DNA of 64,000 nucleotides from Candidatus Multivoradales bacterium (GCA_965223155.1 CBDCVR010000014.1:544001-608000), one strand, 5' to 3'; positions 5,108 through 45,995 are shown, counted from the first letter of the stretch. The notes: generated by a model from the sequence alone, not told the origin. Made by a program: numbers and translations.

Positions 5108-7075
5108 CTACCAACTGACGCTCAAGGAAAACTTGTAGACCGTGTGATTGCGAGGAGCGCTCAGGTTCTCGAACTCATATTGGCCCACCACATCGCTCAC
5201 CTCCATGCCTTCGGGAACGAGGTTCAGGCCGACTAGCGCCTGCTCGGCCGAGATCGAAGGTGGCCGCCTATTGTGGTACTCAGTCGCTTTGAGCTCGAGG
5301 GAGACTTTCTCCGCACCAGTGTGATCCTTGGCCAGAACCATCTTGCCACCGATCTCGAACTCGGTTCGAACATCAGCGCTGTCTTCAAACAACCCGCCGC
5401 CGGTCTCGTCGAGACCCTCGAGGGCCTGCTTCCAGTAGTAGTGAGTGTGGAGCTCGATCCGGTCGTTCGGCCGGAACGTGATCGTCGGCCGAACCGTCAG
5501 CCGAAAGTCGAATGATGAGGGGGGCGTGAACTTGCCGGTAATGGCTTCGGAGTCCTCCGCAGCCACGCCTTCCTGCACCGAGAGCTCGGGGCCGGCAGCG
5601 ATGACCGATTCATCCTCCTTGAGTCGAACAGTGATCTCTCGGGTGGCAGGCTTCTCGAAGTCTCCGAAGAGACTGGCGGCAATGCCGAACTGCAGCCGGG
5701 AGCGCTTCTTCAGGATCGCCGGAAGCGTATGGCAGTACTCCTCCTTGTGCTTGGTGATCTGGGGACCCGTGAAGAGCTCATCGCGCATCACCTCTCGATA
5801 GTGGTCGAGATATTTCTGCGTTTGCCGGTCAACCAAGATTTCCCGTCGGCGAGCGTCGTTCTCGTCGCAGAAGGTCTGCCAGCGTCTGGGGCTCGTCTTT
5901 CTCCTCGCTGGATCGTCATAGACCAGGTAGGACAGTCCCCCCTCGAACCAGGGACTCCGTTTACGCTTAAGGTCCCACTCGAGGTTCATTCCCACTCCGC
6001 CTTCATAGCGCTCTGAGATCCCAAGAAAGCTATTGGTGAATCGTTCGAGAAATCCATAGACCTCGAGCCAGTCCTCGAAGTAGTAGTCGTAATTGACGAG
6101 GATCTTGGTGACGTCTTCGGACACCTCATCGTCTCTTAACCGCACCTCGGCACCCGCCGATACCCGGAGTTGTCCCGGGTAGATCCCGCGGCTGAGAGCA
6201 ATGTCGGTGCTTAGCTTGTGATCCTCCTTACCCACGGATTCATTTCCAGCGAAGCTCAGGGAAACCGACCCGGTGAAATTCTGCTGTTGCTGCTTGAGCC
6301 AGGCGTTGAACCCCTTCGCGATCGCACCGGGTTCCAATCGGAGAATTCTCGGTTCGAAACGAGCGACATTCTTCGCTTTGACATCGTCCGCAACTTCCAC
6401 CAAGCTCCGCACCGGGTCGCTCGCCGGAACCAACCGATACAAGAAGCCGAAGCCACTCAAGGAGGGATCCGCCGTTCGAAACTCATAGTTCCCGAGGGCA
6501 CTCAGCCCGGGGCCTTTGACGTGATCGAACTGCACGATCAAGTCGTCGGTCAGGATCACCCGCTCGCCAGTCTCGAGGTCGATCAGGAGGCCGCCGGCAA
6601 CGGCGTCCTTCAGCTTGTCGACGACAGTACGTGCCGCCAGCATGAGCTGGGCCTCGCTACACGGAGAGTCCTTGGAAGCTCCCGACGCGGTCGAACCGGC
6701 TGAGTTGGCTGAACCCTTCTGTTTCTTGTTCGTCGAAGCCTTGCCGTCCGACTTCTGCACCTTCGAGCAGGTCGCATTGAAGCGAGCGATTGACTTCGCC
6801 GTGTCGAGGGTCCCCTTGTACTCCAGACTCGCGCAAGTTCCCTTCAAGTCGACCTTCGCAACTTTGGCCACCGAAGCGGGATTCGAGAACTTGACGGCTA
6901 TGGCGTTTGGAACCACACGATACTCGACCGACTCCGGATATCCGTACTCGGAGACTCTCGATGTCGCCGTAGGGGCTGCATCGGCCGGCGCGACAAAGAC
7001 TAGCGGCAGGATGCAGGAGAGGGTCAGTCCGAAAGCAATTCGGACCCGAACACTTCGAAGAATCGACAAAATCAC
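5108..7075 (-). CDS. Secreted protein with C-terminal DUF481-like outer-membrane beta-barrel
   Basis: N-terminal signal peptide; amphipathic strands (FTGSVSLSFAGN, ERFTNSFLGISERYEGGVG); ends in beta-signal-like YKFSLSVSW. Confidence 0.6.
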   Translation of the reverse strand: MILSILRSVRVRIAFGLTLSCILPLVFVAPADAAPTATSRVSEYGYPESVEYRVVPNAIAVKFSNPASVAKVAKVDLKGTCASLEYKGTLDTAKSIARFNATCSKVQKSDGKASTNKKQKGSANSAGSTASGASKDSPCSEAQLMLAARTVVDKLKDAVAGGLLIDLETGERVILTDDLIVQFDHVKGPGLSALGNYEFRTADPSLSGFGFLYRLVPASDPVRSLVEVADDVKAKNVARFEPRILRLEPGAIAKGFNAWLKQQQQNFTGSVSLSFAGNESVGKEDHKLSTDIALSRGIYPGQLRVSAGAEVRLRDDEVSEDVTKILVNYDYYFEDWLEVYGFLERFTNSFLGISERYEGGVGMNLEWDLKRKRSPWFEGGLSYLVYDDPARRKTSPRRWQTFCDENDARRREILVDRQTQKYLDHYREVMRDELFTGPQITKHKEEYCHTLPAILKKRSRLQFGIAASLFGDFEKPATREITVRLKEDESVIAAGPELSVQEGVAAEDSEAITGKFTPPSSFDFRLTVRPTITFRPNDRIELHTHYYWKQALEGLDETGGGLFEDSADVRTEFEIGGKMVLAKDHTGAEKVSLELKATEYHNRRPPSISAEQALVGLNLVPEGMEVSDVVGQYEFENLSAPRNHTVYKFSLSVSW

Positions 7076-7282
7076 GGCGTCCTCCTTTGAAGAGTCTGGC
7101 GGTTCCCCAAGAGAGACGGACCGGTCGCACTCTTTTCACAACGGCGCCGACTCAGAGCACCCAGCCGTCCACGGCACCCCACAGTCAACCGTCCCGGGGA
7201 CCGCAGCCTGCAGCAGCACTCGCGCCCTGCGTCTGGGAGAGACCTGCGACTACGCTCCGCCCGGCGCCGCTGGACTCTCGCC

Positions 7283-8242
7283 CTACCGACTGCCGGCGCC
7301 GGCGACGAGCGCGGAAAAGGCCGCTTCGAGCTCGGGGAGGTCGGCGGCTTCCGGTCGGTCCGCCAGGCGCTCGCCAAGCTCGCTCAGCGCCCCGGAAGCG
7401 GATGGAGGAATTTCCAGTCCCACCCACTGCTCGGGCGCCCGCCGAATCGCTCGGCCCTGGAGGAACTTCAGGTCCCCGGATCCGGCCGCCAAGCGACCGG
7501 CCTCCGCCCACTTGCCCAGGCCTAGATAGCTCGCGTCGGCGGCGTCCTCGAGAAAGCCCGCTGTCTGGCCGCTCAGATCGAGCAAGCTCTCCGGCGCTTC
7601 TCCCGCCTCGAGGCGGTCACGCAGATGACCGTACGAGTAAACGATGTGCTCGGTGAGCTCGAACGAGCCGGCGAGATCGGTGAGCTCGGGCAGTACTTCC
7701 AGGGCCTGGCCGGCGTCGCCGCGCTGGAGCGCGACCTCGAAATCAACCAGGCGCACGCCGAGCCGGAAGGAGCGCTCACGCTCGTCGAGACCGACCGAGA
7801 AGCCGCCCGAGCTTCGGGCGTAGGACCAGCCGGCCGCGTCGTAGACGGTGGAATCCGACGCACTTAGTTGGCGGCCGAGATCCGCGACGTCAAGACCCGC
7901 GCCGGCACCCCTGCGATCCCAGATCCCGTCCAGTAGCGGCGTCCAGAGCAGCATCGCCACGATGGCCGCAGCAGCAGCTCCAGCAACAAGCCAGCCACCA
8001 CGAAAGCCACGGGGCCGGCGAGTGCGGGCCGCGTCAAGATCGGCCGGCTCGGCCCAGGCGGCCGAGCGCCGCGCCTCCTCTTCTTGAAAGCGAAGTGTCT
8101 CGGCGTAGACCTCGTAGCAGCGCTCGCATTCGGACACATGGGTCACCATGGCCTCGCGCTCGCCTGCCTCGAGGCGGCCGTCCACGAAGGCGGCAAGATC
8201 CTCCAGAGTCGGGCATGCCGGGCTGGTTGGCTGGTCGCTCAT
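7283..8242 (-). CDS. zf-HC2 membrane anti-sigma factor with extracytoplasmic domain
   Basis: CPTLEDLAAFVDG...HVSECERC; single TM; directly downstream of the ECF sigma; AGGAAGG RBS. Confidence 0.8.
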   Translation of the reverse strand: MSDQPTSPACPTLEDLAAFVDGRLEAGEREAMVTHVSECERCYEVYAETLRFQEEEARRSAAWAEPADLDAARTRRPRGFRGGWLVAGAAAAAIVAMLLWTPLLDGIWDRRGAGAGLDVADLGRQLSASDSTVYDAAGWSYARSSGGFSVGLDERERSFRLGVRLVDFEVALQRGDAGQALEVLPELTDLAGSFELTEHIVYSYGHLRDRLEAGEAPESLLDLSGQTAGFLEDAADASYLGLGKWAEAGRLAAGSGDLKFLQGRAIRRAPEQWVGLEIPPSASGALSELGERLADRPEAADLPELEAAFSALVAGAGSR

Positions 8243-31308: not shown

Positions 31309-33876
<2,568 letters not shown>

Positions 33877-33880
<4 letters not shown>

Positions 33881-34302
33881 TCTCGAATCTCCAGACCGCC
33901 CAGGATCTTCTCGCGTTCGGCCTTGGTCGGCATCGAGCCCAGCGCCTCGGGCGGGACACGGTCCCAGACGGCCTCTTCGAAAAACCGCTCGAGGGCCTCT
34001 CGCCGAGCCGTCCGCGATTGCGGGACGGGCGCCTCCCCGAGAACCGAAGCAGTGGAGTGCCCAACTCGGTACTCGACGCCGTCCTCGGAGATCTCCCCGT
34101 CCGGATCGGCCGAATCGTTCGGCCTGCTTGACGCCGGGCCCGTTCCCCGCCGCGGCAACCCCGGGCGTTCGAGTGGCCCGAGGCGGGCGACCTCCCGGCC
34201 GTGCCGGGTCAAGACGACCCAGCCGCCGCGCTCGGCCAGACGAACGCATTCCGCGAAACGAGCCTTGGCCCGTGCAATCGAAAGTCGCTTCACGGCACCC
34301 AT
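33877..34302 (-). CDS. Phd/YefM-type antitoxin with VapB-like C-terminus
   Basis: SIARAKARFAECVRLAERG..VVLTRHGREVARL; ATGA overlap with the toxin gene. Confidence 0.8.
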
Positions 34303-36403: not shown

Positions 36404-38161
36404 CTACTCCTCCACGTTCCTGGCTTGCTCGACCAGGAGTTCAAAGAAGGGATCGTCAAGCCGTTCGGCCGGCAAGTCGATCGCGTTCTGGATGGCCAGC
36501 GCCTCGGCGAGATCCCAAGGCGCGTCCCGCGCCCAGACCGCGACGTCCGTCGATTGGTCCGGCGTCAGCTTGCGATGATGTGTCCGGAAAGCGGCAGGGG
36601 GCGCGTTCAAGAACTCGCCCAAAGCGCGGTGGTACGCATGTCGCGATTCACCGTCGGGCTCCCGTTCGTACAGGACATAGTCGACCGTCATGAGATGGGA
36701 CAGCCGAAGGTGCGGCGCGAGTAAGGACTGCTTGAGCCAGCGCAGGCCGGCGACGTCCGCACCGGCAACTCGATCCCGAGGCAGAGTGGAGACGAGCAGG
36801 ACGGCCGCCTGTTCCATGTCGCGACGCTCCCGATCCTCCTGGATCAGCCGGAGCGCGAATTCGAAGTTCCGTATCCGGGCCTGCGCTTTGGCACCCGGCT
36901 CTCCCCTCCCTACGGCGGGTCCCAAGCCCAGGGCGCGAAATATCCGGTGCGGCCGTTCGGAGCTGGCACGGTAGACCAACAGGAACGTCTCATCGACACC
37001 TGCCTCGGCACCCCATGTGACGTAGGCGTAGTTGAAGCCACCGATGGCGAGACAGCCGACCGTCCCCCACGCGGCCAGCCGCCGGCTCGACAGGCGGCGG
37101 ATCGACAGGGAAATCAAAAGCGCGAGCGCCGCCAAGATCATCGCACCTCGCGCCCAAGCTAGGGTTACCTGGAACGAGAGAACGGCAAACCCAATCAGGA
37201 CGAAGGCGGACAGAAAGACCGGCAGGAGGCTCCGCGAGACCAGGCCGCGCAGGATCGACCAGCCGGCTACGACAGTCATCGGCAGGGAGAGGGTGACGGG
37301 CAAGCTCAGCCAGTACCAAAGAGCCGGCGGTAGGTTCCGATGCCCGAGGGTCACCCGCGGGCGTCCGAGCACCGAAACGAACTCTGCGCTTCCGAGCCAG
37401 TTGCCGAAGTCGAGTACGGCAGATCCCGGTCCCAGATACCACCATAAGACCGGAAACGCGCAGACCAAAGTCGCCGGGCCAAGGCCCCAGGCGGTCAGAG
37501 GCGTCCACCATCGGAACGATTTCTGAGGCTTGGAGCTCGGGCCTTTACTCTGGCCGTTGCGGGCTAGAGCGACGACCACGGGCGCCGCGAGTGTCGGGAG
37601 TCCGAAGACGAAGAGATACGAGGGATGGAGCAAGACTCCGACCGCGTGCGTCGCCACCAGAAACCAGCCTGAGCGGCCCGAGGGTCGGGAAACGAAGCAA
37701 ACGAGCGCCAGTACACCCAGCGCGCTCCAGCAGAACGCTCCGTAGTAGGGACTGTAGGCGCGGGAGAGATGAACCGCGGGCGGAAAGGTCGAAACCAGAG
37801 CGGCAGCGAGCAGCCCGACGCCATGGCCGCCGAATCGCCTGCCGGCAGCATGGATCCCGACAAGGAGAAGGGCCAGGAACGGCAAGTTGACGTAGCGCGC
37901 CGTGGAGTCAGCCTGCTTCCCCATCCAGAGGAAAGGAAGCGTCAGCAATTGGTAGGTGGGAGGCCTGCCGCTCAGGCTGAGTTGCTCAAGCGAGGGGTTC
38001 CCGGCCCGAAGATGCTCGTCGAAGACGACGAGCTCGCTCAAGTAGGCGCGGCTGTTCGGAGCCCGAACGACGTGCTCGGAGGTCTTCACCCACCAGATAT
38101 TGACGAGTGCCTGGCCGACGAAAAGGCCGCAGAGCAACAAAGCTGCGGTGCGGCCGTTCAT
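36404..38161 (-). CDS. ArnT/PMT-like (GT-C) membrane glycosyltransferase
   Basis: RPPTY...ARYVN...GLLAAALV pattern; many TM helices. Start uncertain. Confidence 0.7.
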   Translation of the reverse strand: MNGRTAALLLCGLFVGQALVNIWWVKTSEHVVRAPNSRAYLSELVVFDEHLRAGNPSLEQLSLSGRPPTYQLLTLPFLWMGKQADSTARYVNLPFLALLLVGIHAAGRRFGGHGVGLLAAALVSTFPPAVHLSRAYSPYYGAFCWSALGVLALVCFVSRPSGRSGWFLVATHAVGVLLHPSYLFVFGLPTLAAPVVVALARNGQSKGPSSKPQKSFRWWTPLTAWGLGPATLVCAFPVLWWYLGPGSAVLDFGNWLGSAEFVSVLGRPRVTLGHRNLPPALWYWLSLPVTLSLPMTVVAGWSILRGLVSRSLLPVFLSAFVLIGFAVLSFQVTLAWARGAMILAALALLISLSIRRLSSRRLAAWGTVGCLAIGGFNYAYVTWGAEAGVDETFLLVYRASSERPHRIFRALGLGPAVGRGEPGAKAQARIRNFEFALRLIQEDRERRDMEQAAVLLVSTLPRDRVAGADVAGLRWLKQSLLAPHLRLSHLMTVDYVLYEREPDGESRHAYHRALGEFLNAPPAAFRTHHRKLTPDQSTDVAVWARDAPWDLAEALAIQNAIDLPAERLDDPFFELLVEQARNVEE

Positions 38162-38207
38162 CGGTTCTTTCCCCATCGAGATGCTAGCATCCGCGCTTCG
38201 AATCGAG

Positions 38208-39539
38208 ATGTCCAACGCAAGGCGAAGACGGCTCCGTACCTCGGGTGTCGCAGTCGGCGGCGCCGTCATCGCGCTGGCGGTTGGGTTCCTGCTGCAACAG
38301 ATGGCAACGGAGCCTCCGGAGGCCGATCCGGAAGCAGAATTGCGCCGGCTCAGAAGCCTGCCCTACGCCTCCGTCACCACGGCTTCGTCGGAGGCCGAGG
38401 GAGTCGTCATCCATCAAACCGGACGTGCTCAGCCCGGCCTCAACCTCTACTCGTCCCGGGTCGCCAACGAAGTCGTCCTCGAGACCCTGGAAGGACAGGT
38501 GGTGAAGCGATGGTCTTTCCCCGACGACGCCAGGAGGCAGCCCGCGGAGACGAACCAACGAGGACAGGACAAGGGCGTGGTCGTCACGGCCGCGCTCCTG
38601 GCCGACGGCACCCTGGTTGCCGTTCGCCGGCTGACCGACCTGACGAAGTTCGACGCCGACGGCGGAGTGCTCTGGCGGCGAGACCTGCCAGTGCATCACG
38701 AACTCGTAGATCTCGGCGACGGAACGCTGCTGACCTGGTCACGGAGAGTCGTGCCGTATCGGTCGATCGAGGTTATCGACCAGCCTCTGCTGCGGCTTCG
38801 CGCTTCGGATGGAACCGTGCTCGAGCAGTGGAATCCGAGCGACCATCTCGCCGAGCTCCGCAATCTCGTTGGGTCTCACTGGACGTTCGATGCGGCGCTC
38901 GACCGCCTAAACCAAGCGGGTGAACCAGCGGAGAACGAGCGGCGCCGCGGCGCGATCCGGATCAAGAACGACTCTCCGGTAGACCTCTTCCACGCCAATA
39001 CGATCTCGATCTTGCCCAAGAACACGCGCGAAGCCCGAGATCGCCGTTTCGCGGCCGGGGGCCTCCTTCTCTGCTTCCGCAACCTAGATCTACTGGTCAT
39101 CTTGGACTGGGCCACCAAAGAGCTCATCTGGCATTGGGGGCCGGGAGTTCTTTCGCGGCCGCACCATCCCACCTTCCTGGCCAACGGCAACGTCCTGGTC
39201 TTCGACAACGGTGTGGCTAGTAGACGGAGCCGGGTCCTCGAGGTCGACCCGGTCTCGGGTCGAATCCTATGGAGCTACGAAGGTGAATCCTCGGAGCGGC
39301 TTTTCTCGCGGACTATGGGCTGCGCCCAGCGACTTGCCAATGGCAACACCTTGATCTGTGAGTCGAATCGGGGCCGCGTGATCGAGGTCACCCCCGCGGG
39401 TGAGGTCGTCTGGGAGTGGCTGGGCCCGATCGTGTCCTCAGCCCAGGCGCGGAAAGTGCAGAAACAGCTCCGTGACCCCCCCTATCGCGAGATGATCTAT
39501 CGAATGGATCGGCTGCCGGTTTCCGTCGCCGACGGCTGA
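38208..39539 (+). CDS. Arylsulfotransferase (ASST)-family protein
   Basis: VHHE, FHANTI, HHP..L.NGNVLVFDNG, AQRLANGNTLI motifs; N-terminal TM. Confidence 0.85.
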   Translation: MSNARRRRLRTSGVAVGGAVIALAVGFLLQQMATEPPEADPEAELRRLRSLPYASVTTASSEAEGVVIHQTGRAQPGLNLYSSRVANEVVLETLEGQVVKRWSFPDDARRQPAETNQRGQDKGVVVTAALLADGTLVAVRRLTDLTKFDADGGVLWRRDLPVHHELVDLGDGTLLTWSRRVVPYRSIEVIDQPLLRLRASDGTVLEQWNPSDHLAELRNLVGSHWTFDAALDRLNQAGEPAENERRRGAIRIKNDSPVDLFHANTISILPKNTREARDRRFAAGGLLLCFRNLDLLVILDWATKELIWHWGPGVLSRPHHPTFLANGNVLVFDNGVASRRSRVLEVDPVSGRILWSYEGESSERLFSRTMGCAQRLANGNTLICESNRGRVIEVTPAGEVVWEWLGPIVSSAQARKVQKQLRDPPYREMIYRMDRLPVSVADG

Positions 39540-39722: not shown

Positions 39723-40760
39723 CTAGACCTTCGCCGGAACCTTCTCCCAGTCGGACCGGGGCGCGTCCGTGGCGATCGCCAGGCCGCCCTCGGCGCCGAC
39801 GAAGACCGGATCCTCGACCCGGCGCACGGTGCCGCCGCCGTACTCGTCCAGGGTGAGCTCCAACGCCTCGGCCAGGCCGCGGATAAGGGCCGAGCCGCCC
39901 GACAGGATGACGTGGTTTCTCACCTCGGCCTGGTACTCGGGCTCGACCCGCGCCAGAAGCTCGAGCATGGTCTCGGTGATCGGAGGCAGCAGGCTCTCGC
40001 AAGCGGTCCGCATCTCGGTCGTGATGTCCACCTCGGTGGGCTTGCCGTTGAGCGGGACCGTGACCTTGACCGGCTTCTTGGGCTCACCTACGAAGCTGTA
40101 TTTTTCTTTCCACTCGCGCACCATGTGCTCGGAGAACGCCACCTGTGGGTGGGCGGCCGCAACCAGCTTTTCGAGCTGCTCGTCTACCGAGTCGCCCGCC
40201 TGCATCAGGGTGCGCTGATCTTCCTCGGTCGGGAACCGACCCTTCATTACGCAGAAATCTGTGGTGCCGGCGCCGACGTCGATGATAAGCGCGTGCAGGA
40301 GGGCATCGAGACCGTAGGCGACCGCGAACGGCTCGGAGACGATCATCAGCGAATCGACCAGGCCGGCCAAGACGTTGCGTAGCTGCTGCTTGTTGACCCG
40401 CATCGCCTCGGCCGGTACCCCGACCACGGCTCGGACCCCTTCGGGGTTCTTGATGCCCGCGCGCTTCAGAAGGTGGCCGATGATCTCGCGCACCGCGCGC
40501 AGGTCCTTGTCCGAGCCTTCCTTGATGAGGCCGCGCTCGAGGGGACGGTGGAGGTCAAGCATGACGCGGTTCTTGATCGCGTCTTCGCCGATCAGGATCT
40601 TCTTTTTCAAGACCTTGGTGGCGACCATGTCGGCCGGCCAGCCGACGAAGCTATCGACCACGTACTTCTGGTCATCGGACGTGGCGATCGAGCTCCGGGA
40701 CGTTCCGAGGTCGATCCCGACGTAGGTGACGCCACCGGCGCCGGCTTCTTTTGCACACAT
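39723..40760 (-). CDS. MamK-like bacterial actin
   Basis: GIDLGTS, VGVPA, VSEPFAVAYGLD, IIDVGAGTTD, EEDQRTL..AGD, KEKYSFVG, EPEYQ, ILSGG, DPVF; closer to MamK than MreB by recalled motifs. Confidence 0.85.
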   Translation of the reverse strand: MCAKEAGAGGVTYVGIDLGTSRSSIATSDDQKYVVDSFVGWPADMVATKVLKKKILIGEDAIKNRVMLDLHRPLERGLIKEGSDKDLRAVREIIGHLLKRAGIKNPEGVRAVVGVPAEAMRVNKQQLRNVLAGLVDSLMIVSEPFAVAYGLDALLHALIIDVGAGTTDFCVMKGRFPTEEDQRTLMQAGDSVDEQLEKLVAAAHPQVAFSEHMVREWKEKYSFVGEPKKPVKVTVPLNGKPTEVDITTEMRTACESLLPPITETMLELLARVEPEYQAEVRNHVILSGGSALIRGLAEALELTLDEYGGGTVRRVEDPVFVGAEGGLAIATDAPRSDWEKVPAKV

Positions 40761-40775
40761 GGTTGAGTTCCCCTC

Positions 40776-41834
40776 TTACGCGCTCTCGTTGAGTTGGCGA
40801 GCGTAGCTCGAAATGCCCCGGAATAGGGCCTCAGCAATGTACTGCCGATACCCCGGGGTCATCAAGAGTCTGGCTTCGTTGGCATTGGAAAGGCAAGAGA
40901 CTTCGGCGAGGATCGCCGGCATCTCGGTTCCGGTCAGGACAATGAAGGGCGCCTTCTTGACGCCCCGATTCTGCAACCCGGGATTGACCCGGCGTAGCGA
41001 ATTGTAGAGCGCCCGCTGCACCGAGCGGGCAAGCTGACGCGACTCGTCGTTGCGAACCCCGGCATAGACCTGATCCAGGACCCGGCGATAGTCGGCCATC
41101 GAATAGCCGGCGTCCTGGTTCTCGGCGGCCGCCAGCTCGGTCAAGTACGGATCTTCGGTGGGTCCGAGGTAGTAGGTCTCGATGCCCCGCACCTCGCGCG
41201 CTTCGATGTAGTTGAGATGGATCGAGACAAAGAGATCGCCTTCGGTCTCGTTGGCGTACCGGGCGCGGTCTTCGAGGGGCACGAACACATCCCGCTTGCG
41301 AGTCATCGCCACTTCGAAGGACGAGTCCTCGAGCAAGACTGTCAGTCGCTTGGCGATGTCGAGTGCCAGGGTCTTTTCGGCCAGCCCATTGGGACCCTGG
41401 GTGCCGGGGTTCTTGCCGCCGTGGCCTGGATCCAGAACGATTCGCCGCACGCCCAGCGGAAAGACGGCGCGGTCGAGAGCGGCGGGCGTCGCCAGCGGCG
41501 CCTCGGCCGAGCCCGTGCCGGACTCGGGTCCACGCGGCGCCGGCAGGTCCTGCTCAAAGCCGGCAAGGCCACTGGTGAGCTGGACATCGGCGGCTACCCG
41601 CTCGGCGATCTCGGTCGAGCGCAGATCGATCCAACGGTCGGCGACCTCCGAGCCCAGGTAGGACGCGCCGAAGAGCGCCACCGGCAGGGTCAGGAAAAAG
41701 ACGATGCGGGCGAACGTCTGGGCACGCTTGGTCTTGGTCGGCCGGCGAAACCGGTAGCGGCCGGTCATGACGTCCCGGTTCTCCTGCACGGCCTCCCGAA
41801 TCAGGCGGCGCTTCAGTTGGGCCATCTCACTCAT
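40776..41834 (-). CDS. Membrane-anchored N-acetylmuramoyl-L-alanine amidase (Amidase_3)
   Basis: LDPGHGG, EK, FVSIHLN and PAILAEV motifs; basic N-terminus + single TM. Confidence 0.93.
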   Translation of the reverse strand: MSEMAQLKRRLIREAVQENRDVMTGRYRFRRPTKTKRAQTFARIVFFLTLPVALFGASYLGSEVADRWIDLRSTEIAERVAADVQLTSGLAGFEQDLPAPRGPESGTGSAEAPLATPAALDRAVFPLGVRRIVLDPGHGGKNPGTQGPNGLAEKTLALDIAKRLTVLLEDSSFEVAMTRKRDVFVPLEDRARYANETEGDLFVSIHLNYIEAREVRGIETYYLGPTEDPYLTELAAAENQDAGYSMADYRRVLDQVYAGVRNDESRQLARSVQRALYNSLRRVNPGLQNRGVKKAPFIVLTGTEMPAILAEVSCLSNANEARLLMTPGYRQYIAEALFRGISSYARQLNESA

Positions 41835-42091
41835 GACGCACGGCTTGACTCTACGCGAGGACGATCTTGTACCCAGTGAAGCGTTGCACTTCCAGCCGCA
41901 ACGCGGGGCACCGCGCCCACGGCTCTGAAGATGGTATTACAAGACGTCGATACGTTGGTGGCGAGGCCGCGCAACCGGTGGGACCAAGGCGATCCGCGGC
42001 CTCGGGATCCGGATCTGCGGCCCGGCCAGGATCCGGCCGGGATCCAGCCAAGATCCAGTAGGATCGGCCGGCACGACCGAAGGAGGACTCG

Positions 42092-43282
42092 ATGCTTGCC
42101 GAGCGCGTAGCCGACATCCAGAACGCCCTGGCCGAGATGGAAGCCGACGGGTGGCTTTTTGCCTGTTTTCAGAACAACGATCCGATCTCGCTCGAGCTTC
42201 TGGGCCTGGGCGGCGACCATCTCGTCAGCCGCCGGTGCTACTACCTGATCCCGGCCCAGGGCGAGCCGCGCCGGCTGGTGCACAAGCTGGAACCGGCCCA
42301 GCTGGACCACTTGCCGGGCAGCAAGAGCTCGTATCTATCCTGGCGCGAACACCGCGCCGAGTTCGAAAAGCTCCTTGCCGGCATGAAGAAGATCGCCGCC
42401 CAGTACTCGTCTGACAACGCACTGCCTACGATCTCGCGCCTGGATGCGGGCACGGCCGAGCTCATCCGCTCGTTGGGTATCCAAATCGAGTCGGCGGCCG
42501 AGCTGGCGCAGCGCTTCGCCGCGGTCTGGTCCGAAGAACAGCTCAACGGGCACCGCAGAGCCTGCACCCATCTCCACGAGATCGTCAAACTCGCCTTCGC
42601 CGAGGTGGCCCAGGTGCTCAAGGCCGGAGCCGAGGCGGACGAATACACCATCCAGAAGTTCATCCTGAACCAGATGGATCAGCGCGGCCTGTGGACCGAC
42701 TCACCACCGATCGTGGGCCGCAACGAGCACGCGGCGGATCCCCACTACCAGCCGACCGCCGAGGTGACGTCGCCGATTCGCAAGGGCGACTTCCTGCTGA
42801 TCGACCTCTGGGCCAAGGAGAAGGCCGCGGCCGATTCCATCTACGGCGACATCACCTGGTGCGGTGTCTGTGACGTCGCCCCCACCGACAAGCAGGTGGA
42901 GCTCTTCTCCACCGTGGTCCAAGCTCGCGACGCGGCCTGGGAGCTCATCTCGAGCCGGTACCCGGACAAGTCGGTGCGCGGGTTCGAGGTCGATGACGCT
43001 TGCCGCGAAGTGATCGAGGCCGCCGGCTACGGCGAGTTTTTCATCCACCGAACCGGACACTCGATCGGCACCCAGACCCACGGCCAGGGCGCCAACATGG
43101 ACAACCTCGAAACCCACGATACGCGCCGGCTGGAGCCGATGACGGGCTTTTCCATCGAGCCGGGGATTTACCTCGAAGGCGACTTCGGCGTGCGCACCGA
43201 GATCAACGTGGCTCTACCTCCCGACGCCGCCGAGATCACCGGCGGCGACCGGCAGATGGAGCTCCTCCGGCTCTTGGCCTAG
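42092..43282 (+). CDS. M24 (Xaa-Pro) aminopeptidase
   Basis: LIDLW, GDIT, HRTGHSIG, SIEPGIY and GVRTE motifs. Confidence 0.92.
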   Translation: MLAERVADIQNALAEMEADGWLFACFQNNDPISLELLGLGGDHLVSRRCYYLIPAQGEPRRLVHKLEPAQLDHLPGSKSSYLSWREHRAEFEKLLAGMKKIAAQYSSDNALPTISRLDAGTAELIRSLGIQIESAAELAQRFAAVWSEEQLNGHRRACTHLHEIVKLAFAEVAQVLKAGAEADEYTIQKFILNQMDQRGLWTDSPPIVGRNEHAADPHYQPTAEVTSPIRKGDFLLIDLWAKEKAAADSIYGDITWCGVCDVAPTDKQVELFSTVVQARDAAWELISSRYPDKSVRGFEVDDACREVIEAAGYGEFFIHRTGHSIGTQTHGQGANMDNLETHDTRRLEPMTGFSIEPGIYLEGDFGVRTEINVALPPDAAEITGGDRQMELLRLLA

Positions 43283-43400: not shown

Positions 43401-44339
43401 ATGGGCCGGAACCGGACAGGCGGCGCGGACGTTTCGAGTGAGTCGACACCGGACGGGCCACCGCGCGGGCTCGGTCCGCGGGGCAAGCCCGAGCGGCTCC
43501 TCGAAGCGCACCCGACCGATCCGGCCTGGCGCGCCGACGCCCTGGCCGGCAGCCGTCACAGCCGCTTAGCGGACGAGGTTCGCCCGCCGCTCGCGGACTC
43601 CGATCCGGTCCGCGCCCAGCAGCTCTGCGCTCGGATCACCCGCGAGGTGCTGCGGGATTTCGCCCCCGGCCTCGTCTTCCTTCGCGGGGCTGACCGGAAC
43701 CGAGTACAGGCTCTCACCGCCTTCGCTCGAACCCTTTTCGATTTCGCCCGGCAGCGGGGACTCGAAGGAGACCGTCTGGCGCTTCTCAACAATTGGGAGT
43801 TCCAGACCGAAGAGGCTCTCTCGCCAGGCCGCGGGACCCACCCGCCGAGCCAGCCGGTCTTCGTCGCGATGGCCTCGGCCGGGGCCGTCCGCCCCTGGCC
43901 GCGGACGGCTCTGGACCGCCTATTTGACCTGGCACGGAGCGAGGCCGTGGGGCGCCCCGTTCCGCCTCGGGAGCTGGCCACGACACTCCTCGCCTGCCTA
44001 TGGCACCCGGAAGCGGAGGTCGATCCGGCATCGAGGGACCTCCTCGAGGCAGCGCTCACCGAGCGGCCGGGCGCGGGGCGCGGGCGGCCGTCCCAAGAAG
44101 GCGGCGACCCGTCTCCCTCGGGCGAGCGTCCGCCACGTGGACCGAACCGGGCCTGGCGCCGTGCGGGCGCCTACGCCGAGGGCGTCCTGCGGTATCGGCG
44201 GCTTCGGAGCGGGACGGCTCGAAGCCGGCTGGATTCGGATCCGGAGGGAGCCGGGGCCGCGAGGCCAAGCCACGAGGGGGAGCCGATCGGTCTCGGGACG
44301 CGGCTCCGTCTACTCGTCGCCGCCCGCCTCGGCCGGTGA
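43401..44339 (+). CDS. Degenerate squalene/phytoene synthase-like protein
   Basis: LCARITRE..DFAPGL.FL...RVQALTAFARTLFDF resembles the CrtB N-terminus but lacks DDxxD. Start uncertain. Confidence 0.5.
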   Translation: MGRNRTGGADVSSESTPDGPPRGLGPRGKPERLLEAHPTDPAWRADALAGSRHSRLADEVRPPLADSDPVRAQQLCARITREVLRDFAPGLVFLRGADRNRVQALTAFARTLFDFARQRGLEGDRLALLNNWEFQTEEALSPGRGTHPPSQPVFVAMASAGAVRPWPRTALDRLFDLARSEAVGRPVPPRELATTLLACLWHPEAEVDPASRDLLEAALTERPGAGRGRPSQEGGDPSPSGERPPRGPNRAWRRAGAYAEGVLRYRRLRSGTARSRLDSDPEGAGAARPSHEGEPIGLGTRLRLLVAARLGR

Positions 44340-45062
44340 CGGCCGCTCGGCGGAGGCCGGATCGCCCTGCGAGTCGGGAGCCCGATCGGGCGCGGGCGCG
44401 TCGAGCGGCTCGACCAGGATCTTGGCTGCGGCCCGCATCCCCAAGTTGACACGCCCGCCGGAAGCGGAGTCCACCACCATCGAGTCCGCCACCTCGGTCA
44501 CCGAGGCGATCCGGATCGTGGTTCCGATCTTCACCCCCTCGCGCTCGAGCGTCTGGAGAAATTCGGGGCTCTGGTCCAGAACCCGGGCCACGGCCACGGC
44601 GCGGCCCTGGCGGAACCGGGTCAGCGGCAGGTAGTCGAGCACCGGCACGTCGCCGCCGGCCGTGGGGATCGGATCGCCGTGGGGATCGGCTTCGGGCCGT
44701 CCCAGCATCTCGTCCATGCGCTCGACAAGGCTGTCCGAGATCGCGTGCTCCAGGCGCTCGGCCTCGCCGTGGACCTCGCTCCAGTCCATGCCCATGACCT
44801 CGACCAGGAAGAGCTCGATCAGGCGGTGGCGGCGCAGGACGTGAAGCGCCAGTTGGCGGCCTGAATCGGTCAGGCGGACACCGCTATAGGGCTCGTAGTC
44901 GACGAGACCGCTGCCCGCCAGGGTCTTGACCATGGTGGTCACGGTCCCCGGCGTCAGCTCCAGCGCGCCGGCGATGACTCCCATGCCCACCCGCTTCCCG
45001 GGCGCTCGCTGCTCTTCGAGCAGGATCTGCTTCAGGTAGTCCTCGACGGTGCTGGTTGCCAT
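44310..45062 (-). CDS. DtxR/MntR-family metal-dependent regulator
   Basis: EDYLK, RRHRLIELFL, EAERLEHA and DPHGDPIP motifs; FeoA-like tail. Confidence 0.95.
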   Translation of the reverse strand: MATSTVEDYLKQILLEEQRAPGKRVGMGVIAGALELTPGTVTTMVKTLAGSGLVDYEPYSGVRLTDSGRQLALHVLRRHRLIELFLVEVMGMDWSEVHGEAERLEHAISDSLVERMDEMLGRPEADPHGDPIPTAGGDVPVLDYLPLTRFRQGRAVAVARVLDQSPEFLQTLEREGVKIGTTIRIASVTEVADSMVVDSASGGRVNLGMRAAAKILVEPLDAPAPDRAPDSQGDPASAERPSPAEAGGDE

Positions 45063-45083
45063 TGAATCGGAGGGATCGGGAGC

Positions 45084-45995
45084 TCAGGGGCAGTCCAGCG
45101 GCCGCGCCTCGACGAAGCCCTTGGGCTCGAGTTGCAGTGTTTGGTGATCGATGCCGAAGCGGGAGCGGAGCATCGTGCTCGCCTCCTCCAACACTTCGCC
45201 GTGTGGCTTGCCTTCGACGACCACGTGAGCCGAAAGCGATTCGACGCCACTGGTGATCGTCCAAACGTGAAGATCGTGGACGCCGCGGACGCCCACGAGA
45301 TCCAGCAAGGCGCGACGGACCTCATCGACGTCGATGTGAGGAGGCGCGCCTTCCATCAAGACCCTGACAGCCTCGGTCACGAGATGCCAGGAAGAATAGA
45401 CCACCAGGGCGGCGATGAGAAACGATGCGACGGGATCGGCCCAGGTCCACCCAAGGGTCCAGATGAGCGCGCCCGCAAGCAACGCCTGGACGCTGCCGAG
45501 GGTGTCCATCGCGACGTGCAGCCAGGCGCCGCGAAGATTGAGATTCGCGTCCTTGCCACGGCGCAAGATCGCCAGGCTCGCGAGGTTGATGGCGAGGCCG
45601 CCGGCTGCGATGGCCATCATCGGGCCGCTCGCGACTTCAGCCGGCTGACGCAGCCGTTCGAAGCCCTCGAGCACGATGAAGGCGGAGATGGCCAGGAGCG
45701 CGGCACCGTTGACCAGAGCGGCCAGAATCTCGGTGCGGTGGTAGCCAAAAGTGCGTCTGGCGTCGGCCGGACGCCGGGCGATACGGAGGGCGAAGAAGCT
45801 GAGCAGTAGCGCCGCGACGTCCGAGAGCATGTGGCTGGCATCGGCCAGAAGTGCCAGCGAGTTGGTCCAGAGACCGCCCACGAACTCGGCGACCATGTAG
45901 ATCGCCGCCAGGGCCGCCGCCCAGCCCAGCCGGTGGCCGTGGGCATGCGCCGAGCCGGCCGGCGCCTCGGGCCCGTGGTGGTGCGCGTGGGCCAT
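45084..45995 (-). CDS. CDF zinc/cobalt/cadmium efflux transporter (ZitB/CzcD type)
   Basis: His-rich N-terminus; SLALLADASHMLSD, TFGYHR, LHVAMD and HDLHVW motifs. Confidence 0.95.
   Translation of the reverse strand: MAHAHHHGPEAPAGSAHAHGHRLGWAAALAAIYMVAEFVGGLWTNSLALLADASHMLSDVAALLLSFFALRIARRPADARRTFGYHRTEILAALVNGAALLAISAFIVLEGFERLRQPAEVASGPMMAIAAGGLAINLASLAILRRGKDANLNLRGAWLHVAMDTLGSVQALLAGALIWTLGWTWADPVASFLIAALVVYSSWHLVTEAVRVLMEGAPPHIDVDEVRRALLDLVGVRGVHDLHVWTITSGVESLSAHVVVEGKPHGEVLEEASTMLRSRFGIDHQTLQLEPKGFVEARPLDCP

Follow-up and report, generated by a model that had tools for sequence, protein, structure and literature searches.

We have analysed a pair of genes on a 64,000-nucleotide (nt) stretch of DNA from Candidatus Multivoradales bacterium (GCA_965223155.1, CBDCVR010000014.1:544001-608000), which we refer to throughout as the window and whose positions are counted from its first letter. 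A preliminary description, made from the sequence of the window alone, had noted there a MamK-like actin gene that starts 15 bp after the gene for a membrane-anchored peptidoglycan amidase, and had proposed that the two constitute a distinct cytoskeletal module, outside any magnetosome cluster, in which a MamK-type filament positions a wall hydrolase through the cytoplasmic tail of the enzyme. Both open reading frames (ORFs) were located exactly where that description had put them, on the minus strand and with the spacing that it had given: an Amidase_3 ORF of 352 aa is followed by an actin-like ORF of 345 aa (Table 1), and the 15-bp gap between them, GAGGGGAACTCAACC, includes the Shine-Dalgarno-like word GAGGGG 9 to 14 nt before the ATG of the actin gene. 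The source genome (4.0 Mb in 15 contigs, 98.66% complete) is that of a Thermoanaerobaculia acidobacterium, described as a non-magnetic, soil-type bacterium; close homologues of the actin carry source labels of Thermoanaerobaculia or Acidobacteriota metagenome-assembled genomes (MAGs) and are mostly named 'rod shape-determining protein MreB'.

The pair is flanked by a divergent M24 peptidase gene upstream (Pfam Peptidase_M24; 42092-43282, plus strand) and by a convergent arylsulfotransferase-like (ASST-like) gene downstream, and the amidase and actin ORFs therefore stand as a discrete unit. This self-contained two-gene module is probably co-transcribed. Two results tell against such a reading: a simple scan of the intergenic region between the amidase and M24 peptidase genes detected no sigma-70-like site, and a terminator scan together with folding of the 3' region gave nothing above shuffled sequences, with no terminator recognised.

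By sequence comparison, the actin belongs to the MamK family and is not an MreB. A search against solved structures ranked the three MamK entries 5JYG, 5LJV and 5LJW at the top (E 2.8e-78), above BeeR (8r2n, E 4e-41) and MreB (E 3e-12), and the alignment with solved MamK ran without a gap from residues 7-340 of the one protein to residues 7-340 of the other. Every motif that the preliminary description had listed as MamK-like rather than MreB-like was found and was matched in this alignment, namely VSEPFAVAYGLD, GAGTTD, EDQRTLMQAG, KEKYSFVG, PEYQ, DPVF and W338, and the family scores agree. The NCBIfam MamK model (NF040964) scored 385.0 bits, covering positions 2-331 of its 335 (384.8 bits in the whole-genome search), the BeeR model (NF053558) 218 of 530 bits and the FtsA model 16 bits; the two MreB models gave 68 of 293 and 51 of 366 bits, and a match of 79 bits to Pfam MreB_Mbl places the protein at the superfamily level only. 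It counts against the assignment that the MamK score falls short of the cut-off of that model, at 385 versus 400 bits; a sister-clade representative (P0123) scored 425 bits and a magnetosome-clade representative (P0143) 508 bits. Identity with BeeR itself was considered and rejected, on the low BeeR score, the lack of an N-terminal extension, and the fact that BeeR-like representatives formed a clade of their own in our trees.

Among 38 orthologues of the actin, D17, G19, T20, E143, D161, G163-G165, T166 and G288-G289 were invariant or nearly so, with the phosphate-binding and adenosine motifs and E143 invariant; these are the residues that matter for nucleotide binding in actin and MamK. Given these intact motifs, and the identity of about 40% that it shares with magnetosome MamK representatives, the actin would be expected to form filaments.

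The first gene, judged in the same way, appears to encode a peptidoglycan amidase of the AmiA/B/C type, with its zinc and catalytic residues and with inserted regulatory helices. Pfam Amidase_3 (PF01520) matched residues 132-342 (E 1.4e-48, 165.6 bits versus a cut-off of 27), and H138, E153, H206 and E311 were invariant in 38 amidase sequences; by homology to AmiA and AmiC, we take the first three to be zinc ligands and E311 to be the catalytic glutamate. The closest solved relatives were E. coli AmiA (8c2o), AmiC (4bin) and Bartonella AmiB. The domain occupies 211 residues on a profile of 174 positions, and the alignment to these three relatives was a single stretch across the insert at about residues 224-270, whereas that to amidases without the insert fell into two stretches. 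In the AlphaFold2 (AF2) model, the insert forms helices at 229-239 and 246-256, and E238-N239 within it is invariant; presumably it is the counterpart of the auto-inhibitory helix of the division amidases. Foldseek ranked AmiA first for the model (TM-score 0.85, normalised to the target). Scores against the NCBIfam equivalog models were 112 of 700 bits for AmiC, 112 of 400 for AmiA and 87 of 532 for AmiB; Pfam gave no match to an AMIN domain, and the N-terminus is unlike a standard twin-arginine translocation (Tat) signal. The source genome has two further Amidase_3 loci, one of which encodes a 638-aa protein with the Amidase_3 domain at its C-terminus, and the actin-linked amidase is therefore an additional, dedicated copy.

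Table 1. Features of the amidase-actin gene pair, with positions in the window and the evidence for each
Feature	Position	Strand	Evidence
Intergenic region between amidase and M24 peptidase genes; presumed site of the module promoter	41835..42091	.	ORF layout
Amidase gene, predicted bitopic Amidase_3 peptidoglycan amidase, 352 aa	40776..41834	-	ORF call, Pfam, NCBIfam, PDB search, AF2, Foldseek
Conserved cytoplasmic helix, residues 2-23, predicted actin-docking peptide (SEMAQLKRRLIREAVQENRDVM)	41766..41831	-	Orthologue conservation, AF2, co-fold, regular expression
Arg/Lys-rich stretch before hydrophobic segment, residues 24-43	41706..41765	-	Orthologue alignment
Hydrophobic segment, residues 44-62, predicted transmembrane anchor or signal-peptide h-region	41649..41705	-	Kyte-Doolittle; within AF2 helix
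Variable Pro/Ala-rich linker, residues 63-125, predicted disorder from ~91	41460..41648	-	Poorly conserved, length-variable; low predicted local distance difference test (pLDDT) score
Amidase_3 catalytic domain, residues 126-352	40779..41459	-	H138, E153, H206, E311 invariant; Pfam, AF2, Foldseek
Two-helix insert, residues ~224-270, with invariant E238-N239	41025-41165	-	Alignment, AF2
15-bp spacer with Shine-Dalgarno-like GAGGGG before actin start codon	40761..40775	-	
MamK-family actin-like ATPase gene, 345 aa	39723..40760	-	ORF call, Pfam, NCBIfam, PDB search, trees
Predicted docking cleft, first half, actin residues 124-155 (includes VSEPFAVAYGLDALL)	40296..40391	-	Co-fold interface
Predicted docking cleft, C-terminal half, actin residues 329-342, around W338	39735..39776	-	Co-fold interface
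Upstream ORFs of other MamK-family loci with the tail-related motif: L156, L158, L160, L162, L164, L166, L169, L171, L173, L175, L180, L191, L192, L195			

Conservation of the gene pair and placement of the actin

The order amidase-then-actin was kept at every related locus of the genome survey, and the two genes are not neighbours by chance. Strong matches to the actin were present in 38 genomes within 41 relatives, at 54-83% identity, and in 25 of 301 sampled genomes from the phylum, mostly within the class. By tblastn, the amidase lay directly upstream of the actin in 20/20 loci and in 37/37 loci; by ORF analysis, a same-strand amidase ORF lay directly upstream in 135/137 loci, and hand checking of the two misses, which are two copies of one genome's locus in which the amidase ORF (L064, 3919-4989) runs 4 bp into the start of the actin gene, brought the count to 137/137. 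It should be noted that these 137 loci are not all independent, in that several contigs are present twice, and that one of them (L025, genome G005) is from an unpublished genome. Where the start codons are clear, the gap between the two genes ranges from about -8 to +20 bp, with many 4-bp ATGA overlaps; large negative gaps are an artefact of choosing the longest upstream start in GC-rich DNA. The flanks of the window locus are not conserved, and we found the M24 peptidase gene at 2/85 loci, the ASST-like gene at 1/85 and the gene for MntR, described below, at 7/85.

A scan of metagenome contigs that was seeded with other MamK-family clades yielded 80 loci, of which 27 have an amidase directly upstream. 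Eight of these amidase-linked loci were placed on the tree, and all of them fell inside the clade of the window actin (support of 99 in the Shimodaira-Hasegawa-like approximate likelihood ratio test, SH-aLRT). Another 31 loci have over 1.2 kb of sequence upstream and no amidase in that position, and the 11 of these that were placed, L221 aside, fell in other clades. Traced on the tree, the amidase-upstream state requires two changes for 20 rows that have it and 12 rows that do not. The sole exception inside the clade, L221 (3014-4540, plus strand), is a point against the pairing: an M48/TPR gene lies upstream of its actin, and there is no amidase within 5 kb upstream. Here the amidase partner has been either lost or relocated.

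Absence of the one gene was accompanied by absence of the other. Four genomes of the same family or class that are 96-100% complete (G015, G017, G146 and the unpublished G063) lack the actin, and their only matches to the amidase were 38-42% identical, covered the catalytic domain only and lay inside much longer frames. These matches are the ordinary AmiC-like paralogue; amidase and actin are jointly absent. In summary, the adjacency that the preliminary description had put forward for checking across genomes was kept at 137/137 loci and again in the metagenome sister clade. The module is real and ancient in its clade, and it stands apart from MreB and magnetosome MamK alike.

Genes to the 3' side of the actin vary by lineage. 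Among the 121 loci with enough sequence, a DNA ligase gene was found at 18, a hydrolase gene at 15, the gene for a PilZ-domain membrane protein at 9 (and in genome G032), and the gene for a SPOR-domain protein at 6. Examples of a third same-strand gene of the PilZ or SPOR type after the actin are seen at L064 (~6030-7435, plus strand), L047 (3616-5163, minus strand) and L037 (3610-5382, minus strand); the window locus has no third gene, and neither a PilZ nor a SPOR gene is present there. SPOR domains bind glycan strands that have been stripped by amidases, and the SPOR-domain neighbours point weakly to septal or other amidase-linked wall processing.

We examined the wider family through a HMMER search of a protein library, which gave 184 clusters at 50% identity (E up to 1e-30). 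In separate searches, 499 species genomes encoded a relative of the actin, and more than 4,400 proteins were matched. By source names, which are available for a minority of the cluster representatives only, the members come from Nitrospira, Verrucomicrobiota, Gemmatimonadota, Nitrospinota, Nitrosomonadaceae, archaea of the anaerobic methanotrophic group ANME-2, and magnetotactic bacteria; the last include the MamK-like protein of AMB-1, an entry with the name 'Magnetosome protein MamK', and one sequence from Magnetococcales. The P0146 cluster holds MamK-family actins, 37% identical to the window actin, that NCBI labels as from ANME-2/Methanosarcinales MAGs. A profile scan of genome contigs with a six-sequence alignment returned only the acidobacterial clade to which the window actin belongs, at 80 loci with 62-69% identity, and yielded no named neighbourhood from magnetotactic bacteria or other phyla. 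One clade of MamK-family actins (P0133-P0161), which is well supported, carries N-terminal extensions of about 200-900 residues, for total lengths of 523-1232 aa, and no Pfam domain was found in these extensions.

Phylogenetic placement agreed with the family scores. Our trees were quick ones, with SH-aLRT support. In an LG+G4 tree of 86 rows, the window actin fell in a clade of 15 rows (support 99), and the named magnetosome sequences (P0200, P0184, P0197 and P0145) fell in another, of 13 rows (support 95). In a tree of 76 rows under the C20 model with posterior mean site frequencies (C20-PMSF), which included metagenome sequences, the clade of the window actin had 23 rows (support 99) and split into a Thermoanaerobaculia-type group of 11 rows (support 100) and a sister group of 12 rows (support 96). 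The actin thus does not group with canonical MreB and lies in a supported clade inside the MamK family, as the preliminary description would have it. That description had also suggested a bearing on the origin of MamK; on this point, the trees separate the clade from the magnetosome MamKs but have no reliable root. Their outgroup was a single MreB on a branch of length 5 whose rooting we do not trust, and we therefore draw no conclusion as to which MamK lineage is ancestral and which derived.

That the actin might be a remnant or a part of a magnetosome system, or else a second MreB that serves rod shape, is suggested by its closest solved structure, which is a MamK, and by the MreB label that its relatives bear in the source records. 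The genome gives little room for either idea. Models for MamB, MamE, MamI, MamO, MamP and MamQ detected nothing over cut-off in it, MamA and MamM not having been searched for as such. The scores below cut-off were 70 of 350 bits for MamB, 35 of 300 for MamP, 96 of 250 for MamQ, 94 of 800 for MamO and 145 of 800 for MamE; MamI gave none, which is weak evidence, as its model was also silent in every control genome. The weak matches are generic cation diffusion facilitator (CDF), HtrA/PDZ and LemA proteins, and they are spread across three contigs. The window also encodes a CDF transporter, 4 kb away, which resembles ZitB (250 bits) and not MamB (71 of 350 bits). With regard to MreB, a canonical copy (492 bits) is encoded on contig C15 of the same genome, with MreC about 500 bp downstream, and the window actin reached 68 bits against the MreB cut-off of 293 and sits in a clade apart from the named magnetosome MamKs. 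We reject both ideas as next to impossible, refuted as far as sequence data can refute them. The actin is unrelated to magnetosomes in this genome, and the earlier statements that it lies outside any magnetosome cluster and is not a canonical MreB were both confirmed.

The ZitB-like CDF metal exporter mentioned above adjoins a regulator that resembles MntR/DtxR (180 bits against a Thermus-type MntR model), the two genes together occupying 44310-45995 on the minus strand; they look like a small metal-homeostasis pair, and not like MamB/MamM. Elsewhere in the window, a minus-strand ORF of 621 aa at 36404-38269 has many hydrophobic stretches and matched no Pfam family at E up to 0.01, and at about 33488-34302, again on the minus strand, a small ORF that by eye looks antitoxin-like precedes what is presumably the C-terminal part of a PIN/VapC-like protein.

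The cytoplasmic tail and its predicted docking site

The first 20-25 residues of the amidase share one pattern across orthologues (LKRRLIREAVQENRDVMTG in the window), with the consensus RLKRRLLRxAVxENxxxIxG, in which N19 is nearly invariant. After this tail helix come an Arg-rich stretch, a hydrophobic segment, and a Pro/Ala-rich linker that is variable in both length and sequence. The sister clade keeps a recognisable version of the tail, for example KIRQNILRGVYEENL, and the motif is kept even in the most distant orthologues. The AF2 model of the amidase, built with 38 sequences (mean pLDDT 85), consists of a helix at 2-23, a break at 24-33, a helix at 34-90 that encloses the hydrophobic segment, disorder at about 91-120 (pLDDT below 50 at 91-97 and 106-111), and a confident domain at 126-351. 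The hydrophobic segment, at residues 44-62, reaches a Kyte-Doolittle maximum of 1.79 over 19 residues. The basic N-terminus and the single hydrophobic segment of the preliminary description are accordingly present, and membrane anchoring is predicted from them. Such a conserved cytoplasmic helix would go beyond the need of a plain export signal, and the long variable linker would suit a membrane-tethered enzyme that reaches out to the wall; we predict that a single N-terminal segment tethers the amidase to the inner membrane.

Some features of the N-terminus would also fit a long cleavable signal of the Sec or Tat type, in which case the mature amidase might be free in the periplasm, the helix would act before or during export, and the actin would at most set the site of release. 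The hydrophobic stretch is short, at about 14-19 residues, has a central proline, and is followed by small residues (FGAS; in many orthologues G-A-S or G-S-T). In several relatives, RR-A-P-L-L stands immediately in front of it, and E. coli AmiA and AmiC are Tat substrates. These points weigh against a tethered enzyme. However, an n-region of about 43 residues that includes a conserved 20-residue helix is far longer than that of usual signals, the twin-arginine spacing is not conserved, with a single R before the segment in the window amidase, and the continuous helix followed by a disordered linker in the AF2 model is the layout of a tethered enzyme. We consider a cleaved N-terminus quite unlikely, and retain the membrane-tethered amidase in what follows.

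As had been suggested in the preliminary description, we co-folded the amidase N-terminus (residues 1-43) with the actin, each with a 38-row alignment. The tail helix was predicted to dock in a cleft of the actin with a median score of 0.85 (runs of 0.86, 0.84 and 0.85), as compared with 0.02 for the best of 3 controls. The mark for a positive result was reached by 58/80 solved complexes and by 2/110 mismatched pairs, counts that are rough, as our own alignments were used. The runs agreed in at least 71% of contacts, with a partner pLDDT of at least 63, and the interface joined tail residues 4-23 to actin residues 124-128, 138-155, 174-176 and 329-342. By its position, we take this to be the hydrophobic cleft lying between the actin's two halves, which is the site of ParR on ParM and of many actin-binding helices. 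One position alone stands out in the predicted interface, R128 (codon 40377-40379): R or K occupies it in 21/22 rows of the amidase-linked clade, and mostly L, I or V in the 52 rows from elsewhere in the MamK family. We regard R128 as a candidate for a specificity contact with the acidic tail residue E18.

Several considerations weigh against binding of the tail to the actin as modelled. Conservation of the docking cleft extends over the MamK family as a whole, with 0/5 clade-specific positions falling in the 23-residue interface, and the model may place a generic amphipathic helix in a generic groove. Solved complexes of helices bound in actin-family clefts exist, and the result may partly reflect likeness to these; the 3 controls did not include another actin such as the MreB of the same genome. 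Furthermore, the inter-domain cleft of actin and ParM is also the longitudinal contact of the polymer, and a helix at that contact could bind monomers or filament ends only. The support for binding is wholly computational, and the co-fold score expresses the confidence of a model.

A related motif was seen on the partners of other MamK-family actins. In other MamK-family clades, represented by 31 metagenome loci, the gene next to the actin on its upstream side does not encode an amidase, and Pfam assigned its product as GGDEF-like, as PAS, or to nothing. A regular expression written from the amidase tails, which matched 119/121 full-length amidases, matched 14/31 of these upstream ORFs (Table 1), and in 11/14 the match lay within 5-48 residues of the C-terminus, as in KRELMVSIFEANR and KKEMLKDIFESNV. 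The rate per 1000 aa was 1.30 in the upstream ORFs and 0.049 in the source genome's 5402 six-frame ORFs, and there were 0 matches in ORFs downstream of the other-clade actins; the expression is loose and was written after the tails had been seen, so this enrichment is indicative and not a formal test. The motif on these partners has the form K-K/R-x-L-M-x-x-I-F-x-x-N-L, and the docking helix in general has roughly the form (K/R)-(K/R)-x-Φ-Φ-x-x-Φ-Φ-x-(E/D)-N-Φ. It is conceivable, although we put it forward with some doubt, that this short helix is a general docking peptide of the MamK family, N-terminal on amidases and C-terminal on other partners, in analogy to ParR with ParM or WH2 with actin. 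MamK-type filaments would then be a widespread modular system for cargo positioning, of which the alignment of magnetosomes would be one specialised use. Within Thermoanaerobaculia and the sister clade, a treadmilling or end-tracking filament would carry the tethered amidase along the membrane, with ATP hydrolysis in the cytoplasm patterning wall cleavage on the other side.

The same observations could be read with control running in the reverse direction. The tail would bind the actin, but the amidase helix would nucleate, cap, sequester or membrane-anchor a filament whose real cargo or role is different. The predicted site is the family-wide conserved inter-domain cleft, where binding would favour ends or monomers, and the occurrence of a related motif on GGDEF-like, PAS, coiled-coil and Pfam-less partners gives it the look of a general adaptor or regulator peptide. 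Against this, the invariant catalytic residues of the amidase and its loss together with the actin fit an enzyme that is the functional output, and a linker of about 60 residues with a full catalytic domain would be costly for a mere anchor. On these grounds, we hold reverse control to be rather unlikely. It is also conceivable that amidase and actin are co-regulated neighbours only, for example in division or a stress response, that never touch, with the tail binding another cytoplasmic factor. Operon partners need not bind one another, the evidence for binding is all in silico, and the cleft is generic; yet the strict adjacency with frequent 4-bp overlaps persists across the class and the sister clade while the flanks change, the two genes are jointly absent, a related motif occurs on unrelated partners, and the co-fold score was 0.83 above that of the best control. 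We judge co-regulation without contact to be very unlikely.

The reading that we favour, and think reasonably probable, is that the filament uses the amidase's cytoplasmic tail to hold or steer the enzyme; conservation and structure prediction are its basis. In this scheme, the MamK-family actin would polymerise beneath the membrane. The amidase would be anchored in the inner membrane by its one N-terminal segment, with the conserved amphipathic helix of its first ~23 residues staying in the cytoplasm and the flexible linker extending into the periplasm. The helix would dock into the hydrophobic cleft between the two actin halves, the filament or its ends would gather, place or move the amidase, and the pattern of wall cleavage in the periplasm would thereby be set from within the cell. 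Septum splitting, or another local step of wall remodelling, would be the most likely context. Direct positioning of the enzyme by the filament, and the cellular process that is served, are what we infer. The claim that the cytoplasmic tail is the link stands to the extent that the conserved helix, the co-fold and the related motif on other partners, all in silico, speak for it. The proposal of a distinct cytoskeletal module, in which a MamK-type filament is connected with a wall hydrolase by the tail of the latter, is supported, and we found no grouping with MreB, no magnetosome island and no lack of conserved adjacency to set against it.

Relation to known systems and significance

Comparison with characterised systems shows which parts of this arrangement are familiar. 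MamK of Magnetospirillum (5JYG, 5LJV, 5LJW), with adaptors such as MamJ, is of the same family as the window actin and has the same nucleotide-binding motifs and a C-terminal Trp; the window actin is 41% identical to the magnetosome-clade representative P0143. It differs in that it is not located among mam genes, belongs to a separate clade, and has a peptidoglycan amidase as its partner. For the amidase, the obvious comparison is with E. coli AmiA, AmiB and AmiC and their LytM activators EnvC and NlpD. The catalytic domain from the window is closest to AmiA and AmiC and aligns with them in one stretch across the insert, but the protein has neither an AMIN domain nor a typical Tat signal, having instead the long cytoplasmic N-terminus, hydrophobic segment and linker, and no activator gene is linked to it.

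Actin homologues are known to influence the site at which a wall hydrolase or a septal wall factor acts, examples being the Bacillus subtilis pair MreBH-LytE, in which LytE is secreted and not tethered, and the E. coli pair FtsA-FtsN, in which FtsN uses a short cytoplasmic tail at its N-terminus to bind FtsA. Both systems use other actin subfamilies than the one described here, and neither forms a dedicated module of two genes. ParM-ParR of plasmid R1 and the Alp-type systems are similar to our proposal in that an actin-like filament is coupled to its cargo by a short helical peptide of an adaptor encoded by an adjacent gene, with a predicted cleft in our case. In contrast to those systems, the cargo here would be a membrane enzyme and not DNA, there is no centromere, and the genes are chromosomal and vertically conserved across the class.

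The closest parallel in design is BacA-LmdC of Hyphomonas neptunium and Rhodospirillum rubrum, where, as reported, the genes are adjacent and the proteins bind directly via LmdC's N-terminal cytoplasmic part (PMC10945521). The logic appears to be the same, with the gene for a cytoplasmic polymer beside that for a bitopic wall hydrolase, and with the tail as binding determinant. As that text describes them, the components differ: a bactofilin, an M23 endopeptidase and a beta-hairpin there, as against an actin, an Amidase_3 enzyme and an amphipathic helix here; and binding was measured there and is predicted here.

MamK-related actins in non-magnetotactic bacteria have been reported before, and the window actin resembles two of these in that respect. 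Saltatorellin, a MamK-like actin of Saltatorellota, formed filaments on heterologous expression (bioRxiv 10.1101/817700), and BeeR, a MamK-related actin of Verrucomicrobiota (PDB 8R2N), polymerised with ATP (PMC11929497). The word 'amidase' has 0 occurrences in these two texts, supplementary files aside. In the full-text literature, with subscription journals and supplementary files outside coverage, we found no description of a MamK-family actin that is paired with an amidase. What was known, then, is the existence of MamK-related actins outside magnetotactic bacteria; what is added here is the pairing of a MamK-family actin with a peptidoglycan amidase and their predicted coupling.

It has long been asked how bacteria control the sites at which their own wall hydrolases cut, and the known answers are periplasmic activators, septal targeting domains and, recently, the bactofilin-LmdC system. 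If our reading is true, the module described here adds an actin-family filament that grips a peptidoglycan amidase by its cytoplasmic tail, and does so in hundreds of uncultured Acidobacteriota. Outside magnetosomes, MamK-type actins would by the same token have a function of their own, and with it a concrete partner that can be tested and a candidate for the docking peptide; both would bear on how MamK acquired its role in magnetosomes.

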